64,000 nucleotides of DNA from positions 462,165-526,164 of the forward strand of contig OZ253471.1 in NCBI GenBank assembly GCA_965261715.1, in the 5' to 3' direction. Every line of letters starts with the position of its first letter. The stretch's first letter is position 1. Shown in pieces: positions 9,286 to 59,586 of the stretch. Both the position numbers and the translations under genes were made by a program. The DNA comes from Dehalococcoidia bacterium. Lineage in GTDB: Bacteria > Chloroflexota > Dehalococcoidia > Bin125. The notes below the pieces were generated by a model that was not told where the DNA came from, did not search any database, and was given only the letters and a program-made list of their open reading frames with translations.

Positions 9286-10050
9286 TCAGCCCATCACCAT
9301 GCCGCCGTCGACATGGATGATCTGCCCGGTGATGTAGGCCCCGCCCGGTCCGGCCAGAAACGCGACCAGCGGCGCCACGTCCGAGGGTTCGCCGAGGCGT
9401 TCCAACGGAATCCGTTGCATCACGCTGCCGATCACGTCTGCCGAGAGATCGGCGGTGATGTCGGTCTGGATGAACCCTGGCGCAACGAGGTTGGCCGTGA
9501 TCCCTCGTGAACCAAGTTCATGCGCCAGCGAACGGGTCAAGCCGGCCAGTCCGGCCTTGGCCGCGGCGTAATTCGCCTGGCCGGCATTGCCGACCGTGCC
9601 GATCACCGAGCCAATCGTGATGATCCGGCCCTTGCGCGCGCGCAGCATCCCGCGCAGCACGGACTGCGTGGTCAGAAACGAGCCGGTCAGGTTCGTCCCG
9701 ACGACCGCGTCCCAATCGGCCGACTTCATCCGCATCGCAAGCATGTCGCGGGTGATGCCGGCGTTGTTGATCAGAATGGTCGGCGCGCCCAACTCGCTCG
9801 TGACCGCTTTGGTCATCGCCGAGACCGCATCTCCGTCGGAGATATCAGCCTGCACGACGAGCGCCTGCCGGCCCAGTTCGCGAATCTGCTCAGCCACCTC
9901 ATGTGCTGCATCGGACGAGGCGGTGTAGTTCACACCGACATCCGCGCCGTGCGAGGCCAACTCCAGGGCAATCGCTCGACCAATCCCACGCGACGCCCCG
10001 GTCACCAGGGCGACCTCACCAGATAACGGGAGTGCTTCGGAGTCAACCAT
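9286..10050 (-). CDS. fabG: 3-oxoacyl-ACP reductase (SDR)
   Basis: VALVTGASRGIGRAIA, NNAG and YAAAKAG motifs. ATG at 10050 gives 254 aa. The upstream track extension to 10269 is not credited. Confidence 0.85.
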   Translation of the reverse strand: MVDSEALPLSGEVALVTGASRGIGRAIALELASHGADVGVNYTASSDAAHEVAEQIRELGRQALVVQADISDGDAVSAMTKAVTSELGAPTILINNAGITRDMLAMRMKSADWDAVVGTNLTGSFLTTQSVLRGMLRARKGRIITIGSVIGTVGNAGQANYAAAKAGLAGLTRSLAHELGSRGITANLVAPGFIQTDITADLSADVIGSVMQRIPLERLGEPSDVAPLVAFLAGPGGAYITGQIIHVDGGMVMG

Positions 10051-50390: not shown

Positions 50391-52121
50391 TCAAGTACGA
50401 CTCTGCCAAATGTTGGCCAGGAAATCCCTGGCTCTACTCAGGTCTGGATCAGTCTCCAATTTCCCTTCGCCCAGCACCTCTTGGACCCACAGTGGGCCTT
50501 TCTCGATGCAGTTTCTGTAGAATCCCTCTAACTCGCCTTCGGGTACTAGCCAAAGTCCCACGGCCTCAAATGATGCTTTGAGTTGAGAGTAAGAAGGCTG
50601 AGCCTCACTTGGAATCGATGTTTCGCCGCCTTCTTTGATACGTCCCCAGGGAGTGACCTCCCTAAAGGCCTTTTCGATGTCACTCCGGAGCGACTTTAGG
50701 TTGGCGAAGTCAGATGCCGGCAAAGCGATTATTTCTCCTATTTTGGATTGCATCTGGTCTACAGAAAGTGGCTGATATACCCGGTTGATTTCTTGCTGAA
50801 CCTCAGTAAAGGGCTGTTTCACCGAATCCCAGTTGCCTTGTAGTGCCTCGTACGTTCGCTTCACGATCGTTCGGTCATTAAGAATGTCGATGTCAGCGAT
50901 AACATCCGTTGGTACTCCGAGAGCCACCATCGACTTGGCCAAGCTGTGAAGGCGTTGTTTTCCGTTAGCCACGAGGAATAGTACATCTGGTTCTATCTCT
51001 CCAGCGATTTGTGGTAGCTCCAGCAGAGCTCTATAGAACATAGAGTCGGCGATACCTTCGCAGATGATAACCCTCTTGTGGAACACTCCCGAAATCGCCG
51101 ACGACTGTCGAAGCAACGGATCGTTAGTAAGTTCCCTTGCCATAGTCTTGTCAAGCTCGTGAGGTGTGTTCGAGTTGCCGTGGCGGTCCAACCGAATGAC
51201 CCGTAGTCTGTTCGTCTCGTTGGCTTCCAGCAGTCCATCGAGGACGTGAGGACTGTGAGTGGCAATGAAATGTTGCTTATTCGATGGAGTGTTTGTGGCA
51301 ATGAGCCTGCCGATGAGTTTGGCCTGCGGAGGATGGAGGAACGCTTCGGGTTCATCCAGAAGCGCTACAGAGGCAGTTCGTGTGGCGAAAAGGCTTAGCA
51401 GCACGGTTGCAAAGCTTCGCATGCCGTCCCCTTGTTCCTGGAGCGGTACGGTAGCTTCAAGTAGTCTATCGTCATAGGAGTCGAAGTGGTATTGCTCGCC
51501 GGGAGCGAAAGTAGGGCGTTCACCAACGCGAAGAGGCAGAACTTTACCAGCATTACGATCGACGAGAAGTTCCTGCCCGAAGGCGCGCCTAAAGAAGTTG
51601 CTAGTCTCATGCTCCAAATTGCTACTCTGGTGTAGCAAATGAATGGGATGAGTTGCAGGATCCGTGCGGAAGGAAATGTTTGGAGCGGGGTTGCTGGCGG
51701 AGAGACGTTCGTCGGTGTCTATGCGGCGAACGAAATACCCGACTAGTTCGGTAAGGGATTTGGGCCAACGGTGTCGCACGCTATCAGATTGGATACTGTA
51801 TCCAAAGCCTTGGAGAATAGGGGGGCGGAAGCCTCTCTTGCGGCTCGAGGAGTGATCTTGGATATGCTGTCTGACGGATTCAGCATCGTGATCTGAGTGC
51901 GAATATTCTGCGTGAACAACAACTTGACCGTCTTGTTGCCCGGAAAGCAAGGATTCTATGTCTCGCAGCGCGCGGGTCTTTCCGGCGTTGTTGGGCCCCA
52001 CGAAGACGACGATGTCGGCTGGATCGATATGGACGGTTTGCCCGTCCGAAAAGGTCACGGAAGTGACGGATATGGTCGGATCGGTTGAATTGTCCAGGGT
52101 TTCGCCACTTGGTATCGTCAC
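50391..52121 (-). CDS. OLD-family nuclease (N-terminal ABC-type ATPase + C-terminal Toprim), stand-alone
   Basis: Walker A VGPNNAGKT, QGDGMRSF, Walker B ALLDEPEAFLHP, IATHSP, then Toprim-like VIICEGIADSMFY and ADIDILND. 576 aa. Visibly AT-richer than its surroundings. Confidence 0.75.
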   Translation of the reverse strand: MTIPSGETLDNSTDPTISVTSVTFSDGQTVHIDPADIVVFVGPNNAGKTRALRDIESLLSGQQDGQVVVHAEYSHSDHDAESVRQHIQDHSSSRKRGFRPPILQGFGYSIQSDSVRHRWPKSLTELVGYFVRRIDTDERLSASNPAPNISFRTDPATHPIHLLHQSSNLEHETSNFFRRAFGQELLVDRNAGKVLPLRVGERPTFAPGEQYHFDSYDDRLLEATVPLQEQGDGMRSFATVLLSLFATRTASVALLDEPEAFLHPPQAKLIGRLIATNTPSNKQHFIATHSPHVLDGLLEANETNRLRVIRLDRHGNSNTPHELDKTMARELTNDPLLRQSSAISGVFHKRVIICEGIADSMFYRALLELPQIAGEIEPDVLFLVANGKQRLHSLAKSMVALGVPTDVIADIDILNDRTIVKRTYEALQGNWDSVKQPFTEVQQEINRVYQPLSVDQMQSKIGEIIALPASDFANLKSLRSDIEKAFREVTPWGRIKEGGETSIPSEAQPSYSQLKASFEAVGLWLVPEGELEGFYRNCIEKGPLWVQEVLGEGKLETDPDLSRARDFLANIWQSRT

Positions 52122-52418: not shown

Positions 52419-52634
52419 TTAGGTCGAAGGAGTTACCAACTCACATGCTGGCGCTGGTATCGGATGCCCGAACTCTTTTGCCGTATCGATCCAGAGCGAT
52501 ATCGCGACCTGTGCTTCGTGGAGCGCGTCCTCATAGGAATCACCGTGCGCTGAACATCCAGACAGCTCTGGGATGTCCGCAACGAAGAGGTTGTCTTCGT
52601 CGCTCCAATAGATCGTGATCGCGTACTTGTGCAT
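52419..52634 (-). CDS. hicB: HicB-family antitoxin-like protein (orphan copy)
   Basis: MHKYAITIYWSDEDNLFVADIPELSGCSAHGDSYEDAL... is alignable over its full length with 52749..52967. Confidence 0.8.
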   Translation of the reverse strand: MHKYAITIYWSDEDNLFVADIPELSGCSAHGDSYEDALHEAQVAISLWIDTAKEFGHPIPAPACELVTPST

Positions 52635-52748
52635 TGGTCGTTCGGTTCTGGCAAGTATGACTGCCCAGGCAGGTGCCGAGTGAATCGAGAAGGCGCGGGA
52701 GACTGTTGGGCAAGTAAACGGGGTTTATCTCCAAGGACGGATACGATT

Positions 52749-52967
52749 TCAATAGCTTGGCGCGACGAGTTCGCCGGCGGCTTGCGGAATCGGCCGTCCA
52801 ATCTCCTCGGCAGCTTCGAGCCAGTATCCAATGGCCGCCTGCGCCTGGGCGAGCGCCTCCTCGTGTGAGTCCCCATGCGCCATACAGCCAGGCAACTCGG
52901 GAATATCCGCGACAAACACGTCGTCCTCATCGCTCCAGTAGATGATGATCTCGTACTTGTGCATCAA
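52749..52967 (-). CDS. hicB: HicB-family antitoxin
   Basis: MMHKYEIIIYWSDEDDVFVADIPELPGCMAHGDSHEEAL... 4-nt overlap with upstream hicA. Confidence 0.8.
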   Translation of the reverse strand: MMHKYEIIIYWSDEDDVFVADIPELPGCMAHGDSHEEALAQAQAAIGYWLEAAEEIGRPIPQAAGELVAPSY

Positions 52968-53209
52968 TCGTCCTCCAGGAGCTTGAACAGCTCATGCTGA
53001 ATGAAAAGCTTACGCAACTGCCGTACCTGGTAGGGTTTGGCGTCGCGGCGCTGCGGTTGCAGGGTAACGACTTCGGACAGGTCCGGCATTTCGTAGATGT
53101 GGTGGCTTCCCCGGATTCGTTCATCAAAACCTAAGGCCAGCAGTAAGGCTCTGAGGTCGCCGAAGCGAATGTTGGCGTCTGCTTGGCCGCTCAAGATCCG
53201 TCGGAGCAA
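52964..53209 (-). CDS. hicA: HicA-family toxin (start uncertain)
   Basis: FGDLRALLLALGFDERIRGSHHIYEMP...VVTLQPQRRDAKPYQVRQL. The track ORF runs to 53290 into the tRNA-Asn gene. The only plausible in-frame start clear of the tRNA is TTG 53209. Confidence 0.6.
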   Translation of the reverse strand: MLRRILSGQADANIRFGDLRALLLALGFDERIRGSHHIYEMPDLSEVVTLQPQRRDAKPYQVRQLRKLFIQHELFKLLEDD

Positions 53210-53260
53210 ACGCTCATGGCGATTCAGCGTGGCTCTCCGTCCTTGGGGGTGACGCGATAG

Positions 53261-53336
53261 TGGCTGCCCGGGCAGGACTTGAACCCGCAACCTAGCGGTT
53301 AACAGCCGCTCGCTCTACCAATTGAGCTACCGAGCA
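53261..53336 (-). tRNA. tRNA-Asn (anticodon GTT), CCA encoded
   Basis: Reverse complement: TGCTCGG TA GCTC AATTGGTA GAGC G AGCGG CTGTTAA CCGCT AGGTT GCGGG TTCAAGT CCTGC CCGGGCA G CCA. Confidence 0.9.
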
Positions 53337-55249: not shown

Positions 55250-56248
55250 GTGGCTGGCGCTGACGTGAGCGACGATCCGGAACCCCTACAGTCCGAGGTC
55301 CAACTCATCCAGCTCGCATTGTCGTCATGCGGCGTTGACGGCGTCGTCGCGAATATCGAGCGTCTGAGCGGCAAGTCGCACCTGAGCTGGCGAGTCACGC
55401 GGATCGACGCGACTCCGGTCGTCCTGAGGATGGAACCGCGGCGAGGCATCCTGCCGCCCTACGACCTGCCCTCCGAGGCGCGATTGCTGCGCTGTCTGGC
55501 CGAGGCCGGCATTCCGGTTCCGCAAGTCCTGGGAGTTTCGGCTGATCTGTCGGCCTGTGACGGCCTGGACGTTGCCCTCGATGCTGGTCGGAGCTGCATG
55601 GTCGTCGACTGGGTTGACGGCGAAGTGCTGTCAGAGCGTCGCATGGAGACCGACGTCGCTCGCGCCTACTGCGAGAACCTGCGTCGCATACACACACTCA
55701 ACTGGCGCAAGGCGCGCCTCGACTGGTTGCCGCTGCCACCGGCGTCGGGACCGGCAATCCGCGAGCGCACGCAGATCGCTGAGCGGCTGCGAGCATTCGG
55801 CATCGACGATCTGCCGCACATCAAACGCTTACGTGAGGCCCTAAACGGCCGAGTCCCAAACAGCCCGCCGCCAATGCTGGTGCACGGAGACGTGAACTTC
55901 GGCAACTTCATCCTGCAGGCCGGTGACGACGCGATGGGTTCGCCGTGCATTGCCGCAGTGCTCGACTGGGAGCAGGCGCATCTGGGCGACCCGTTGTCGG
56001 ACTGGGGTCGTCTCGCGGCAGAAGACCTGCTCGGCAATCTCAATCTCTCGGAGGGCGCGCGACAGGTGATGCAAGAGGCGCTGCAAAGCTACGGTCGCAG
56101 CCAGGACGACCTGAGCTATTGGACCCTGCATCAGCTCTACAAGCACGCCTCGGCAACAGGAGCCCTCAGCGTGATCCACGGCTGGGACATCGAACCAATC
56201 GCCGAGATGTACGCGGGACCGACGGATCAGTCGGTGTCGCGCCTGTGA
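55250..56248 (+). CDS. Phosphotransferase (APH/ChoK-like kinase) family
   Basis: LVHGDVNFGNFIL and VLDWEQAHLGDPLSDW (Brenner and DxD-type motifs). Confidence 0.75.
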   Translation: MAGADVSDDPEPLQSEVQLIQLALSSCGVDGVVANIERLSGKSHLSWRVTRIDATPVVLRMEPRRGILPPYDLPSEARLLRCLAEAGIPVPQVLGVSADLSACDGLDVALDAGRSCMVVDWVDGEVLSERRMETDVARAYCENLRRIHTLNWRKARLDWLPLPPASGPAIRERTQIAERLRAFGIDDLPHIKRLREALNGRVPNSPPPMLVHGDVNFGNFILQAGDDAMGSPCIAAVLDWEQAHLGDPLSDWGRLAAEDLLGNLNLSEGARQVMQEALQSYGRSQDDLSYWTLHQLYKHASATGALSVIHGWDIEPIAEMYAGPTDQSVSRL

Positions 56249-56249
56249 A

Positions 56250-56675
56250 TCACAGTTCGATGCCCACGCGCGCGGCATCATCCGAGGACAGATAGCGCCA
56301 CGACTGCGGGGCAGAGAGTTCTTCATTGATCTGGCTCAGGCGCAAAGGTCTTTGCAGGGGTTGTGGATCGACGACGCGGATCGCTGTTGCCGATCGGCAA
56401 CCTCGGAAGTAGCGACGGAATCGTGCGCGTGAGATGCCAGCGTGTTTCTTGTGAGCGTTCCAGATATTGGTAGGGCTCGCTGACTCGACTGCTGTGACCT
56501 TGACCCAACCCAGTACTGCGCTCTTGGGCGCGGTGGCGTAAATCACCAGGTGCGAGATAGCGCCGCGCACCCTGGAGCGCCGAAGTTCGACCCGTTTTTC
56601 TCCGCTCAGCAGCTTGTCAGCGTATTCCGGATGGACCGAGATCAGCGCGACTCGTCTATCTGCTGGCTTAGCCAA
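56250..56675 (-). CDS. ASCH (PUA-like) domain protein
   Basis: ALISVHPEYADKLLSGEKRVELRR...HLVIYATAPKSAVLGWVKVTAVESASPTNIW pattern of ASCH domains. The TTG start overlaps the upstream ORF by 34 nt. Confidence 0.6.
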   Translation of the reverse strand: MAKPADRRVALISVHPEYADKLLSGEKRVELRRSRVRGAISHLVIYATAPKSAVLGWVKVTAVESASPTNIWNAHKKHAGISRARFRRYFRGCRSATAIRVVDPQPLQRPLRLSQINEELSAPQSWRYLSSDDAARVGIEL

Positions 56676-57739
56676 TTGAGCGCCTCCTCTTCAGTCACTT
56701 GGGTAATCGATTGTGGCCGGCCAGCAAGGACGCCTGCCTGCTCGAGTGCCTCAAATCCGATGGCCTTCGGCAGTAGCCGATCTTGGCGGAAGCGGATAGA
56801 GATGACTTCCAGGCTCGCTAGTTTAGTGATCTGCTCGAAGCTGTACACGGTACGCAGGTTTGTAAATTGGGCGATTTCAGGGGGTTCCTGCGAGCGTAGC
56901 GTTGATTCGACGACCCCGACAGCTGTGATTCCCCTGATGTCATCGGATCGGTAGAAGAGGATTGTCGCGCCTCGGGGTAGCGCGCGAATTCCGCTTTGAC
57001 TCAGATACGCCTTGCGCAAGGCATTCGCGAAGGGTGGCTGGGGCCAAGGAAGCTGCGCTTGTAGTTCCGTAGCGGCTTGCTGCTCATAGTCCGGGAAGAG
57101 CAACCGGTGGTAGCGAGGTTGGATGGGGATGATAAACGCCGGCGTGCGAGGGAAAGCCAGCGCAGGGGGGCCGTGTCGACGGTGAAACTCGAATGGATCG
57201 CTCTGTGACTTCTCGTCCGCGACAAGTCGTTTCGCTATCACAAGCTCACCTAGCTTGGTGAGCTTCCCCTGGAGAACCTCAAAGCCAAACTCCGCGAGGA
57301 GAGCGATCAACTCTTCGTGCTTTGGAAATATGGTCAACCAGACATGATCGTAGGAGTGGGAATGAAGGTGCTGAAAGAGGGCCTTCAGCAATAGATCGCC
57401 GTACCGGTTGCCGCGATACTGGTCAGAGACCTTGAATGTCGAAGCCTTCATCACCTTCCCGCCTAGGCCGTATTCGTCGTCATTGTCCTTCCAAAGGCAA
57501 AGCCCCGCTAAACCGCCGGCCGGCTCGATAGTCCACCCGCGTCGTCGTTCCCGGGCTGCCCCGTCCAGCCAAGCATCGAAATCGGGGTAGTCAACGCGCA
57601 AGCTGTTGAAGATCGGATCGTTCCGATTCAACTCGTGAACTAATCTCACATGAACATCGGGCGGAGGATCAGTTGGCTCGTTGAGCAGAGTGCGCAAGTA
57701 GAGGACGGCCGGATTGATTTGTAATACCCGCTCGTCCAA
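56642..57739 (-). CDS. GNAT acetyltransferase fused to a C-terminal ASCH/PUA-like domain
   Basis: GNAT motif A context FKVSDQYRGNRYGDLLLKALFQHL. The C-terminal half AFIIPIQPRYHRLLF...RGATILFYRSDDIRGITAVGVVEST is ASCH-like. The nominal TTG start lies 9 nt after an in-frame TGA that ends the PIN-like ORF. Confidence 0.6.
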   Translation of the reverse strand: MDERVLQINPAVLYLRTLLNEPTDPPPDVHVRLVHELNRNDPIFNSLRVDYPDFDAWLDGAARERRRGWTIEPAGGLAGLCLWKDNDDEYGLGGKVMKASTFKVSDQYRGNRYGDLLLKALFQHLHSHSYDHVWLTIFPKHEELIALLAEFGFEVLQGKLTKLGELVIAKRLVADEKSQSDPFEFHRRHGPPALAFPRTPAFIIPIQPRYHRLLFPDYEQQAATELQAQLPWPQPPFANALRKAYLSQSGIRALPRGATILFYRSDDIRGITAVGVVESTLRSQEPPEIAQFTNLRTVYSFEQITKLASLEVISIRFRQDRLLPKAIGFEALEQAGVLAGRPQSITQVTEEEALNWLSQQIDESR

Positions 57740-57748
57740 ACCGAGGCG

Positions 57749-58132
57749 TCACGCCTTTCGGTGAATGCCTTCGTCCTCCGTGATGAGATAGTGCACGGCA
57801 TTGCCCATGACCGCCGCCAATAAGTGATGATCGACCCAATCGTTGCTTTCTGGATCGGCAGCACCGAGTGCATCCTCGACAAGGGAAATCGGCGGTGGAC
57901 TCTCGAGTCGCTCATATGACCTGACCTGCAGCTCGCGAACCTTCCGCCGCTCCTGGTCGCGATCTCCTCGAAGTTCTTCAATGCTCTCAGGATGAAGGAG
58001 AAGGTGTCCGCCGATCTGGCTAGCCATTCGCGCTAGATCGGCTGCGGTCGCGGATTTCTCCTCAATGTCACTTTGACGGGCAAGTGCGAGAGGGATAAAG
58101 GCATTCGTGTCAAGGAGCAGGTGAAGTGTCAC
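57749..58132 (-). CDS. PIN-like domain ORF (possibly the N-terminal part of a longer PIN-GNAT-ASCH protein)
   Basis: LLLDTNAFIPL, DWVDHHLLAAV and YLITEDEGIHRKA (PIN acidic quartet pattern). Ends at a TGA in frame with the next ORF. Confidence 0.55.
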   Translation of the reverse strand: MTLHLLLDTNAFIPLALARQSDIEEKSATAADLARMASQIGGHLLLHPESIEELRGDRDQERRKVRELQVRSYERLESPPPISLVEDALGAADPESNDWVDHHLLAAVMGNAVHYLITEDEGIHRKA

Positions 58133-58220
58133 CGGCGCACACCCATGTCATACAGACGTTCTGGTACCTTACCGCGCGGTCGGAAATCGGGATAGTTAGG
58201 GTTGCCCTTACACTCCTGGT

Positions 58221-58646
58221 ATGTCCGACGACATCCAGTACCTGGTCCCCTTGCCTGAGATCGAGTCCCGCTATGGGACTAACTCCTTGTTTGGTGAGCA
58301 ATTCACGGAAATCTCACGCGGCCGCACGGTGTTGGAGATGCCGATCACTCGGGAGACGGCGGGCGGCGCGCGCGGCGGCGTTCATGGCGGTGTGCTGGCG
58401 TCGTTGGCCGACATCGGCGTCGTCGCGGCGGTGCTCTCGACCTGCCGTGTTGGCGAGGCGATGCAGGGCACGTCGGAGTTGAATATTTCCTACTTGCGTC
58501 CTGCTGTGGGCTCGAAGGTGCGCGTGGAATCGAATGTGATTAAGAAGGGCCGCACGCTGGCAGTCGGCGATGTCGATCTGCTCAGCGACCAGGGCAAGCT
58601 GATCGCCAAGGCGCGGGTGACATACTCGATCACGCAGACAGGCTGA
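58221..58646 (+). CDS. PaaI-family hotdog thioesterase
   Basis: GGVHGGVLASLADIG and GRTLAVGDVDL motifs. Confidence 0.8.
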   Translation: MSDDIQYLVPLPEIESRYGTNSLFGEQFTEISRGRTVLEMPITRETAGGARGGVHGGVLASLADIGVVAAVLSTCRVGEAMQGTSELNISYLRPAVGSKVRVESNVIKKGRTLAVGDVDLLSDQGKLIAKARVTYSITQTG

Positions 58647-58650
58647 ATCC

Positions 58651-59586
58651 ATGGATCTGGAGTTGACTCCGGCGCTCGCCAGCGAGGCGCTGTTGGCGTG
58701 CGGCGTCGGCGGACGCGCAGTATCTGCGGCCCGACTCGACGGAGGCGTCTCCAATCTGACCTGGCGGGTTGATCGAGCGGATGGTGCGCCGGTCGCGCTT
58801 CGATTGCAGCGCGAGCAGGGCATCTTCCAGCCCTATGACGTGCTGCGCGAGGCGCGCGTGATCCGTTGCCTGGAGTCGTCGGCCATTCCCGTGCCACAGG
58901 TGCTTGGAAGCGCTGACGCCGAATCGCCGCTGAAATCGCCATACATCGTGCTGGAGTGGCTGGACTATCCGCACATGGGCATGGTTCCGATGACTGCCGA
59001 AGTGGTGGACAACTACCGCTCAATGGTCGAGACGATTCACGCGCTCGATTGGCGAGCGTTGGACCTGGACTTCCTTGGTCCGCCAACCGCCGGACCAGAG
59101 GCGGCGTTGCGCGATCTCGACGCCGTCCATGCGCGAGCCGTCGCGTTTGGCTGCGACGCCGACCCACAGATCGCCAACCTGGCAGCCGTCCTGCGAGGAC
59201 ATCTGCCCGACAGTCCCGAACCGCGCCTCTGCCACGGCGACATCAACGTGTTCAATTACCTCGTTGGCGAAGACGGCTCAATCGCCGGCGTCGTCGATTG
59301 GGAACAAGCCCAACTCGGCGATCCGCTCTCGGACTGGGGCTTGATCACAGCCCTGGGGTCGCTCAAGGGTCTCGACGCGCCGCCCGAAATGCACCCGCTG
59401 ACCGCGCCGGCCTTCCAGCGCTCAGGCCGCGACGCGCGTGACCTCCGCTATTGGATGCTGCATCAGATGTACAAGCTGGCCGTGATCCATCGCATTTGGT
59501 CGGAGATCGGCGATGTCCCACCCTGGTACACGTGGTCGGACGTCGAGCGGGTGTCGGGGAATGCGCTGTCGTATCTGGGCGTATGA
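58651..59586 (+). CDS. Phosphotransferase (APH-like) family
   Basis: LCHGDINVFNYLV and VVDWEQAQLGDPLSDW. Paralogue of 55250..56248. Confidence 0.75.
   Translation: MDLELTPALASEALLACGVGGRAVSAARLDGGVSNLTWRVDRADGAPVALRLQREQGIFQPYDVLREARVIRCLESSAIPVPQVLGSADAESPLKSPYIVLEWLDYPHMGMVPMTAEVVDNYRSMVETIHALDWRALDLDFLGPPTAGPEAALRDLDAVHARAVAFGCDADPQIANLAAVLRGHLPDSPEPRLCHGDINVFNYLVGEDGSIAGVVDWEQAQLGDPLSDWGLITALGSLKGLDAPPEMHPLTAPAFQRSGRDARDLRYWMLHQMYKLAVIHRIWSEIGDVPPWYTWSDVERVSGNALSYLGV

Follow-up and report, generated by a model that had tools for sequence, protein, structure and literature searches.

The window analysed here, a stretch of 64,000 nucleotides from a Dehalococcoidia bacterium, carries on its minus strand three closely packed ORFs that were initially annotated as the PIN, GNAT-ASCH and ASCH components of a candidate undescribed RNA-acylation toxin or defence system. 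The question raised by this locus is whether these ORFs represent a new three-component assembly or belong to something already known. ORF calls returned all three at the positions originally reported, including the 34-nt overlap between ORF2 and ORF3, and the features considered in the following are:

56642..58132, minus strand: gene A (PIN - GNAT - PUA-like/EVE), a 496-codon frame with an in-frame TGA at codon 128
57749..58132, minus strand: ORF1, PIN-domain fragment of 127 aa (Pfam PIN_3, AF2, Foldseek)
57749..57751, minus strand: in-frame TGA nonsense codon, in place of a conserved Arg codon
56642..57739, minus strand: ORF2 (GNAT + PUA-like), 365 aa (ORF call)
57281..57634, minus strand: GNAT acetyltransferase domain, ORF2 residues 36-153 (Pfam Acetyltransf_1)
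56645..57160, minus strand: C-terminal PUA-like domain of A, EVE in Bell et al. (Foldseek, hhalign)
56642..56675, minus strand: A/B overlap, 34 nt (sequence)
56250..56675, minus strand: gene B, equal to ORF3, stand-alone ASCH protein (PDC-M11B), 141 aa, intact, with a TTG start
56580..56603, minus strand: catalytic ASCH motif in gene B, the octapeptide G25-E-K27-R-V-E30-L-R32 (GxKxxExR, 'GKER' type)

The module is AT-richer than its surroundings, as had been noticed, with GC values of 0.55-0.59 over 56400-58200 versus 0.62-0.69 in the flanks, and the neighbours had also been correctly recognised: one codes for a kinase of the APH type (E=7.7e-25), the other for a thioesterase of the 4HBT type (E=8e-14), which is encoded divergently upstream of ORF1. 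Scanning 56000-58400 for sigma-70 promoters and intrinsic terminators returned zero sites. The overlap between A and B suggests that their translation may be coupled, and overlapping or closely juxtaposed A and B genes are also observed in relatives.

ORF1 and ORF2 were then found to constitute a single reading frame upon translation, broken by one TGA ('...GIHRKA*RLGLDERVLQ...') that lies at codon 128, in the linker between the PIN and GNAT domains, with a TTG start 9 nt downstream. The PADLOC profile PDLC04421 (486 positions) extends over both ORFs, ORF1 covering positions 2-124 (E=7e-32) and ORF2 positions 130-485 (E=4e-121). Homologues of A, of which at least 605 were detected at E<=1e-5, are nearly all single proteins of ~485-500 aa, and carry Arg where the window has the TGA. 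The relatives L001 and L028, at 95-98% DNA identity, keep an uninterrupted A within the same 4HBT/A/B/APH synteny, the codon context being GCG-TGA-CGC in the window, GCG-CGA-CGC in L001 and GCG-AGA-CGC in L028, and none of the 34 other loci is broken at this position. The real unit is two genes, A and B, the first of them with a nonsense mutation (CGA->TGA relative to L001), and both this architecture and the lesion are regarded as practically certain. The separate PIN effector of the initial annotation results from one nonsense codon in a gene that encodes a single protein of ~495 aa in nearly all homologues, and the window should be annotated with two genes instead of three, A being a pseudogene or split gene. 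Recoding of the TGA, or its reading as selenocysteine, was ruled out, as TGA ends 15 of the 35 long ORFs (B, both APH genes, 4HBT and HicA being among the genes that terminate in it) and homologues have Arg.

A base-calling or assembly error, in which case the organism would harbour an intact and ordinary pair of the PADLOC PDC-M11 type described below, might be suspected from the fact that one C->T change is all that separates the TGA from the codon of L001, in surrounding sequence that is otherwise essentially identical. Nonetheless, the change is a substitution rather than a homopolymer indel, the presence of T, C and A at the same codon position in three relatives indicates a truly polymorphic site, and an independent lesion in the sister population L029 reveals that A decays in this lineage. 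That this one base was misread in sequencing is still conceivable, but we consider it quite improbable.

Profile searches and structural models were used to evaluate the domains of A, and the three assignments made from the letters alone held. Pfam PIN_3 recognises ORF1 with E=4e-5 and 24.8 bits, slightly below its 27-bit cutoff, and searching the PDB with a profile of the PIN alignment gave nothing significant (best E=0.13), so the fold was tested by AF2 and Foldseek. The AF2 model of ORF1 alone reached a pLDDT of 90.3, and its top Foldseek matches are all PIN proteins (VapC1, VapC11, VapC15, SMG6 and Utp24 included) with TM values of 0.55-0.60. The PIN acidic residues D8, D101 and D120 are present in 109 of 109 full-length homologues, D57 in 106 and E24 in 98, all five being retained in the ORF1 of the window.

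Regarding ORF2, Pfam Acetyltransf_1 scores 31.6 bits against a cutoff of 20.7, Foldseek returns GNAT matches at a probability of 1.0, among them PaiA, NatD and the GNAT toxin 7byy, and the AF2 model containing the GNAT and ZmASCH-like domains has a pLDDT of 90.6. The canonical GNAT motif A, Q/R-x-x-G-x-G/A, serves for binding of the acetyl-CoA pyrophosphate. The A family displays instead a variant, R/Q240-G-x-R243-Y-G245 (R/Q-x-x-R-x-G), in which a conserved Arg replaces the central Gly, with G241 found in 108, R243 in 101 and G245 in all of 109 homologues. Matelska et al. (PMC5499597) described the GNAT motif as degenerate and the domain as probably inactive. The ASCH/PUA-like assignment of the C-terminal half of ORF2 is substantiated by Foldseek matches to ZmASCH (5y6b/5guq; TM 0.72-0.78) and by an hhalign comparison of this domain with the B family (87% probability, E=3.8e-6). 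Pfam EVE does not match the A protein of the window, the closest solved fold of its C-terminal domain being the ASCH of ZmASCH. This domain lacks GxKxxExR, and shows the invariant GNALRKAYL, FYRS, RTVY, FRQ and PQS motifs instead.

Gene B is matched by Pfam ASCH at 33.4 bits (cutoff 21.2), consistent with the stand-alone ASCH domain first proposed for ORF3, and by the PADLOC PDC-M11B profile PDLC04425 at E=1.5e-37. It is homologous over its full length to ZmASCH (5GUS; E=1.3e-19) and contains the octapeptide GxKxx(E/T)xR that marks the ASCH ac4C amidohydrolases and tRNA deacetylases. The G, K, E and R of its GxKxxExR are each conserved in at least 90% of B homologues, a conservation of catalytic residues that we take as practically settled. 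Together with this motif, B retains the equivalents of Tyr47 and Gln127-Ser128 (PQS motif) of ZmASCH, while Lys53 of the latter corresponds to Ser52 in B, whose Lys lies one residue earlier. The two proteins also differ in their surroundings, as ZmASCH has no GNAT-EVE partner, and it was discarded as a member of an A-B pair on account of its upstream neighbour, an unrelated 375-aa protein with neither a PADLOC match nor similarity to A. YqfB differs further, being a 103-aa GKTR-type enzyme with free nucleosides as substrates. Profile searches detected neither an HTH nor an RHH DNA-binding domain in B.

Once A and B are considered as a pair, their identity is almost certain, and the proposal of an undescribed system has to be withdrawn. 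PADLOC assigns the proteins to PDC-M11A and PDC-M11B (E=4e-121 and 1.5e-37), so that the three ORFs fall under a system that has a name, which also corresponds to PIN_15/PIN_17 of Matelska 2017 and to the (PIN)-GNAT-EVE + ASCH modules of Bell 2020. PDC-M11 is the cassette CAS_00069 (FAM_00697>>FAM_00247), one of 145 candidates listed as 'untested' by Payne et al. (bioRxiv 10.1101/2024.01.29.577857), and the literature search found no functional or phage-protection report for it. Both proteins of the window match its HMMs with the same gene order, strand and tight spacing, but A is split by the nonsense codon and does not form the single intact A protein. PIN-GNAT-PUA operons were predicted as TA systems by Matelska et al. 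2017 (PMC5499597), and '(PIN)-GNAT-EVE + ASCH' modules as TA or defence systems by Bell, Wolf & Koonin 2020 (PMC7641849), none of which had been characterised at that time; both works cite Iyer et al. 2013 for the architecture. The N-terminal PIN, the central GNAT, the fused PUA-like domain and the separate ASCH protein of the operon are all found in the window in identical order. Other traits shared with these operons are the sporadic phyletic pattern and, in some copies, a type I RM link or a nearby AAA_17 ATPase, although the window itself has neither the AAA_17 ATPase nor an HTH fused to the ASCH protein. The locus is a new, apparently decaying member of a family already known, and the general idea of a toxin or defence module that acts on RNA and has an unusual partner which does not bind DNA agrees with what has been predicted for that family.

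A PIN-less form from lambdoid E. coli phages is annotated as GevT toxin and GevA antitoxin in GenBank PV340567.1. GevT matches PDC-M11A (2e-133) and GevA matches PDC-M11B (7e-52), their genes overlap in the same order, and identities to the window proteins of about 28-35% reflect homology at the family level only. By contrast, GevT has no PIN domain and its gene is located next to cI in the immunity region of a prophage, whereas the A of the window has a PIN domain in a chromosomal, non-prophage setting; GevTA membership was consequently rejected, the toxin and antitoxin roles being those of the record annotation only. No paper behind these names was found in the literature search. A Tn-seq study of Dickeya dadantii reports that the ASCH gene Dda3937_01763 is essential; it belongs to prophage 1, in which the cI gene 01765 is two genes away (PMC13566846). 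No Dickeya entry appears among the best 120 matches of the GevA search, and homology of that gene to GevA is unsupported there.

Searches of the literature retrieved no experiment on any family member. The toxins of AtaRT, TacAT, ItaRT and KacAT adopt the GNAT fold, and those of VapBC the PIN fold. Structures of the GNAT toxin 7byy and of VapC proteins were indeed among the structural matches, but the GNAT-RHH systems consist of a stand-alone GNAT of ~170 aa with an adjacent RHH protein, while here the GNAT is flanked by the PIN and PUA-like domains within one protein of 496 aa, whose partner is an ASCH, with no RHH, AbrB or HTH antitoxin. Membership of the GNAT-RHH type II TA systems was rejected on these grounds, and that of VapBC likewise failed, since what precedes ORF1 is the thioesterase gene rather than a small ORF for an antitoxin such as VapB (AbrB/RHH/PhD/HTH).

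Pairing of A and B is strict, B being located directly downstream of A in 34 of 34 other loci. These span Chloroflexota, Acidobacteriota, Myxococcota, Cyanobacteria, Planctomycetota, Saccharibacteria and Proteobacteria, and additionally comprise haloarchaeal plasmids, the archaeal provirus psiM100 and lambdoid phages. The family is carried by 33 plasmids and appears in 16 records of phages, GevA-like B proteins amount to 2,441, and among 5,426 complete genomes of E. coli there are 275 with GevT/GevA copies at least 99% identical. There is hardly any doubt about either the pairing or this patchy and mobile distribution. In phage PhiR47_2 the pair sits beside cI and is annotated as GevT toxin and GevA antitoxin, and in a Saccharibacteria MAG (L021) it is found within a type I RM locus beside PDC-S01. 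The pair of the window is not surrounded by BREX, DISARM or type I RM. The expected co-occurrence with a second ASCH protein was found throughout the neighbourhood survey, but the expected mapping to defence islands was not found in general: the 138 neighbouring proteins of 20 diverse loci are mostly metabolic, an AAA_17 ATPase appears among them in 3 cases, and only L021 is clearly in a type I RM locus, so general defence-island enrichment was rejected as unsupported.

Within this Dehalococcoidia lineage the pair keeps its chromosomal site in relatives with as little as 71% protein identity, pyrimidine/biotin-carboxylase genes lying on one side and RNase D/L36 on the other, and such a position between housekeeping genes is unusual for a freshly mobile element. 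This synteny, together with the mostly non-defence neighbourhoods, would be in line with a housekeeping pair for RNA modification or turnover (an ac4C-type writer and its eraser) inherited vertically in Dehalococcoidia. However, the context has already changed at ~51% identity, the family is patchily scattered over distant phyla and archaea, plasmids and phages, GC falls below that of the flanks, A has been lost repeatedly, and its N-terminal PIN is VapC-like, all of which makes such a non-conflict role very unlikely.

Losses of A and B were then compared. The sister population L029, 97.9% identical to the window, carries a +1 G frameshift at A codon ~437 with an identical B, and altogether A is disrupted in 5 of 35 loci and B in 0 of 35, a 5:0 excess that is not significant (P about 0.29) because A is 3.5x longer than B. 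dN/dS values of 0.03-0.12 reflect strong purifying selection on B, versus about 0.25 for A, and the two broken A copies differ by 7 nonsynonymous and 2 synonymous changes, a ratio that fits relaxed constraint on them. Most likely, the copy in the window is an inactivated, decaying toxin gene whose partner gene has been kept.

The stop might alternatively be adaptive, with the free PIN, a re-initiated GNAT-PUA protein and the ASCH protein acting as interacting subunits. Its exact location in the inter-domain linker, the TTG shortly after it, the prediction that the 127-aa PIN fragment folds alone with the pLDDT given above, the presence in ORF2 of everything found in natural PIN-less GevT proteins, and the fact that PIN-less variants are common would suit such a functional split. 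Against it, the break is private to the window among the loci compared and A is uninterrupted in relatives at 95-98% DNA identity, the TTG lacks a good Shine-Dalgarno sequence, the sister population has a different and clearly disruptive frameshift, and the excess of nonsynonymous differences between the broken copies fits relaxed constraint; the split is thus a poor candidate in comparison with simple decay of A. At most, the A of the window would yield a free 127-aa PIN fragment plus, if translation restarts at the TTG, a PIN-less GNAT-PUA product that would resemble the natural 'GevT' forms.

Considered as a whole, the locus is probably a TA-like (PIN)-GNAT-EVE + ASCH (PDC-M11) operon with a broken A, a judgement that blends a near-certain identity with an uncertain mechanism. 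In the intact pair, A would be an RNA-directed toxic effector, its PUA-like domain would dock it on (modified) RNA, for example tRNA, and its GNAT and/or PIN domains would damage the docked RNA, while B would neutralise A, whether through binding to it or through an enzymatic step that reverses or removes what A produces. We tentatively infer that the module may act as a toxin-antitoxin or abortive-infection pair.

A more specific version, which adapts the mechanism of the initial annotation to two genes, holds that the GNAT of A acylates RNA, for example at cytidine N4 or at the amine of aminoacyl-tRNA, that the PIN domain cuts the marked RNA, and that B is an N-acyl amidohydrolase antidote instead of a binding antitoxin. 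TthASCH, EOLA1 and TRIP4 were shown to require the Lys and Glu of the motif in order to deacetylate ac4C in tRNA (bioRxiv 10.64898/2026.02.27.708502), and 19 ASCH proteins, ZmASCH included, are reported in a preprint to strip ac4C from tRNA. This version gains some plausibility because B keeps that Lys and Glu within a complete GxKxxExR, and because ZmASCH, its closest characterised relative and full-length homologue, is among those 19 tRNA ac4C removers. The strong conservation of the GNAT core motifs and the lack of a DNA-binding HTH or RHH domain in B are also consistent with it. Nonetheless, GNAT motif A is atypical, ZmASCH itself is unpaired with any A homologue, and it is also reported as an ssRNA RNase, which makes the activity of B in vivo ambiguous, so that this writer and eraser scheme is judged unlikely. 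Equally doubtful is its extension to the whole family, according to which B-type ASCH proteins would be enzymatic antitoxins, the GNAT-EVE part of A acylating a base or an aminoacyl group of tRNA or another RNA, either with direct toxicity or as a mark for PIN cleavage, and the Lys/Glu amidohydrolase site of B continuously erasing the mark. If true, the A-B pair would be a reversible RNA-acylation conflict module with a logic like that of DarTG, but on RNA, and the modularity of an eraser antidote would be reflected both in the loss of A and retention of B in Dehalococcoidia and in the unrelated partners of B-type proteins (the 375-aa protein of Z. mobilis; FAM_02173 in the tables of Payne et al.).

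B might instead bind modified DNA or regulate A, with A targeting modified phage nucleic acid, as put forward by Bell et al. HTH-ASCH and HsdS-ASCH fusions reported in the family (PMC5499597, PMC7641849) and its association with type I RM (PMC7641849) point in this direction, but the B of the window has no HTH, and the high conservation of its catalytic Lys and Glu (at least 90%) would be needless in a pure reader; such a role is improbable to a similar degree as the enzymatic one.

Returning to the preferred reading of a toxin-like A kept harmless by B, the family offers several practical entries. It is widespread, extending over plasmids, archaeal and bacterial viruses and E. coli genomes, which makes it a tractable target, and B falls in the same ASCH subfamily as ZmASCH, for which solved structures and both RNase and tRNA ac4C deacetylase activities are reported. 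Moreover, natural alleles with a broken A and an intact B exist beside intact ones in near-identical populations. With this spread, this kinship and these alleles, the toxin/antidote hypothesis becomes directly testable.

The three minus-strand ORFs delimited in the initial annotation, ORF1 (PIN), ORF2 (GNAT plus PUA-like/ASCH) and ORF3 (stand-alone ASCH), were recovered at exactly the same coordinates, their PIN, GNAT and ASCH domain calls all hold, and the lower GC content of the module was confirmed (0.55-0.59 over 56400-58200 versus 0.62-0.69 on either side). Their parsing into three genes was not borne out, ORF1 and ORF2 being parts of one gene, hereafter A, followed by ORF3, hereafter B.

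Features of the window at and around the A-B pair (coordinates, strand where assigned, description)
50391..52121, minus, OLD-family ATPase-TOPRIM, 576 aa, the most AT-rich stretch nearby
52419..53290, minus, two tandem HicB-like antitoxin genes (71 and 72 aa), then a HicA-like gene (108 aa)
55250..56248, plus, APH-family kinase flanking the A-B pair
56250..56675, minus, ORF3 (B), 141 aa, ASCH 33.4 bits, above the cutoff of 21.2
56642..57739, minus, ORF2, 365 aa, Acetyltransf_1 31.6 bits, above the cutoff of 20.7
57749..58132, minus, ORF1, 127 aa, PIN_3 E=4e-5, 24.8 bits, narrowly missing the Pfam cutoff of 27 bits
58221..58646, 4HBT thioesterase flanking the A-B pair, followed by the second APH paralogue
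58651..59586, plus, second APH-family kinase paralogue

ORF1 and ORF2 lie in a common frame, with a single TGA between them ('...GIHRKA*RLGLDERVLQ...'), TGA being an ordinary stop in this genome. When compared with PADLOC profiles, they match consecutive stretches of the same PDC-M11A model, PDLC04421, at positions 2-124 (E=7e-32) and 130-485 of 486 (E=4e-121), respectively, while ORF3 matches PDC-M11B (E=1.5e-37). With the read-through protein as query, at least 605 A homologues at E<=1e-5 were detected among 8,000 candidates scored; the best-scoring ones are nearly all single proteins of ~485-500 aa, and at the position of the stop homologues carry Arg, sometimes His or Lys. GCG-TGA-CGC in the window reads GCG-CGA-CGC in a Dehalococcoidia MAG with 97% protein identity (L001) and GCG-AGA-CGC in another compared locus (L028). 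The shared frame, the consecutive profile matches and the Arg codons of the relatives therefore define a two-gene operon, A (PIN-GNAT-PUA-like, 496 codons) plus B (ASCH), in which the linker between PIN and GNAT of A carries a nonsense mutation.

The AlphaFold2 model of an intact A orthologue (P0001) is confident (pLDDT 90.6, pTM 0.86), and Foldseek searches against the PDB relate its middle domain to the GNAT enzymes PaiA and NatD and the GNAT toxin 7byy, and its C-terminal domain to the Zymomonas mobilis ASCH protein, ZmASCH (TM 0.72-0.78, normalised to target). ORF1 modelled on its own (pLDDT 90.3) has exclusively PIN domains as top structural matches (VapC1, VapC11, VapC15, SMG6 and Utp24; TM 0.55-0.60, E about 1e-2, probability up to 1.0). 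Putative catalytic residues are conserved in PIN, GNAT and B. All of 109 full-length A homologues carry the PIN residues D8, D101 and D120, with D57 kept in 106 and E24 in 98, and the GNAT P-loop reads R/Q240-G241-x-R243-Y-G245, with a conserved Arg in place of the central Gly of Q/R-x-x-G-x-G/A. Profile-profile comparison (hhalign 87%, E=3.8e-6) indicates that the C-terminal domain of A is homologous to the B family, with which it shares a PQS motif at the C terminus; the ASCH octapeptide is absent from A, whose own invariant motifs are GNALRKAYL, FYRS, RTVY and FRQ.

A B homologue lies directly downstream of A in all 34 other loci examined, of which 27 come from genomes and 7 from metagenome contigs, phages and plasmids, a strict pairing that in the window includes overlap of both genes. 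Bacterial hosts belong to Chloroflexota, Acidobacteriota, Myxococcota, Thermodesulfobacteriota, Cyanobacteria, Planctomycetota, Armatimonadota, Saccharibacteria and Proteobacteria, and archaeal ones include haloarchaea. The family is horizontally mobile: 33 plasmids carry members, the Methanothermobacter provirus psiM100 carries the pair as ORFD and ORF5, and a PIN-less form adjoins cI in lambdoid E. coli phages, with copies at least 99% identical in 275 of 5,426 complete E. coli genomes. In a Saccharibacteria MAG (L021, 797..9748) the pair lies within a type I RM locus; elsewhere its neighbours are in general unrelated metabolic genes. Beside the L021 pair, directly upstream of HsdR, PDC-S01, likewise an untested PADLOC candidate, was also detected (8.7e-55).

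The architecture, put forward as a candidate undescribed system in the initial annotation, had already been described. PIN_15 and PIN_17 comprise PIN-GNAT-PUA fusions that 'always' occur with a second PUA/ASCH protein and are predicted as TA toxins, PIN-less variants also being mentioned (Matelska et al. 2017, PMC5499597); a proposal of nucleic-acid acetylation is credited there to Iyer et al. 2013. Operons of '(PIN)-GNAT-EVE' proteins nearly always include an ASCH gene, with PIN-containing forms near type I RM and PIN-less ones in prophages, and these modules were read as TA or defence, none being experimentally characterised at that time (Bell, Wolf and Koonin 2020, PMC7641849). As PDC-M11, the pair also appears among 145 untested candidates that were detected inside BREX, DISARM or type I RM loci (Payne et al., bioRxiv 10.1101/2024.01.29.577857). 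The locus is hence a new Dehalococcoidia member of a known, named family; the domains and general class first proposed stand, its novelty does not. The PIN-less phage pair is labelled GevT toxin and GevA antitoxin in GenBank PV340567.1 (2e-133 to PDC-M11A and 7e-52 to PDC-M11B, respectively), roles that are GenBank annotation, our literature search having found no publication for the name. In Dickeya dadantii 3937 prophage 1, the ASCH gene Dda3937_01763 is reported as essential by Tn-seq (PMC13566846). It sits two genes away from 01765, the likewise essential gene of the cI repressor, a layout equal to cI/GevT/GevA in phage PhiR47_2; if a GevA homologue, it would provide in vivo evidence for the ASCH partner as antitoxin.

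We tentatively consider a TA-like or abortive-infection logic, possible though somewhat short of probable, in which A would be an RNA-directed effector targeted by its PUA-like domain, its GNAT and/or PIN would be the damaging activities, and B would neutralise it. That B does so as an enzymatic eraser, as specifically proposed at first, seems unlikely. B is homologous to ZmASCH (PDB 5GUS) over its full length (E=1.3e-19), G25-x-K27-x-x-E30-x-R32 is present with each residue at least 90% conserved among B homologues, and equivalents of ZmASCH Tyr47, Gln127 and Ser128 are found. The eraser idea agrees with the intact Lys/Glu site of B and with the removal of tRNA ac4C reported for 19 ASCH proteins including ZmASCH (2026 preprint, bioRxiv 10.64898/2026.02.27.708502). 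Against it, ZmASCH is also reported as an ssRNA RNase (PMC5615036), the GNAT P-loop of A is atypical, and no A homologue is paired with ZmASCH in the Z. mobilis genome. There (L035, 3825..5447) this crystallised ASCH RNase matches PDC-M11B (8e-29), and the preceding same-strand 375-aa protein shows neither Pfam or PADLOC match nor similarity to A. Payne's tables contain a second cassette with the B family (FAM_02173>>FAM_00247), and B-type ASCH proteins may have several unrelated partners. Residues 8-129 of B also match PRK12279, a fusion protein of ribosomal protein L22, in its C-terminal 'unknown domain' (NCBIfam, E=1.7e-8). In some organisms, then, a B-type ASCH domain is joined to L22, a hint of an association with the ribosome or rRNA.

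Returning to the lesion, 5 of 35 loci have a disrupted A (window, L029, L024, L025 and a complete haloarchaeal RefSeq plasmid) and none a disrupted B; since A is 3.5 times as long as B, this asymmetry by itself is not significant (P about 0.29). L029, a metagenome contig that shares 97.9% identity with the window across 5 kb and has an identical B, encodes Arg at codon 128 and carries a +1 G insertion, outside any homopolymer, at 9852-9853 (equivalent to window 56824, codon ~437 of A), a frameshift independent of the nonsense lesion. On the RefSeq plasmid, pAArc-CO of Halalkaliarchaeum (L034, 3001..4947), A is annotated as two CDSs, a 375-aa 'PIN domain-containing protein' and a 95-aa hypothetical protein, owing to a change of frame around residue 370, and the ASCH gene behind it is intact. 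In intact copies, omega was estimated at about 0.25 (A) and 0.03-0.12 (B). Between the two broken A alleles compared there are 2 synonymous and 7 nonsynonymous changes, small numbers that would fit relaxed constraint. The family member in the window is apparently decaying. The locus itself is of modest interest, the family being a worthwhile experimental target.

In this lineage the pair keeps its chromosomal position, in the order pyr genes, biotin carboxylase, luciferase-like, APH, 4HBT, A, B, APH, L36, RNase D and HicB, down to 71% protein identity, context differing at about 51%. Bracketing of the pair and thioesterase by two APH paralogues is likewise kept down to the 71% relative, L030. 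About 3-6 kb from the pair is a small variable region (GC about 0.50-0.55) with HicAB modules and an OLD/AriA/GajA-like gene. Its ATPase-TOPRIM protein matches AriA (1.6e-21), Old (3.9e-21) and GajA (4.8e-17) in PADLOC, and AAA_21, AAA_15 and OLD-like_TOPRIM in Pfam; L030 has a SLFN_AlbA_2 gene in its place, and in L029 an extra DDE transposase adjoins the ATPase gene, so that the site, 4-6 kb from the pair, looks like a small variable defence islet. The two tandem HicB-like proteins have similar N-termini, versus a single HicB in L029 and L030.
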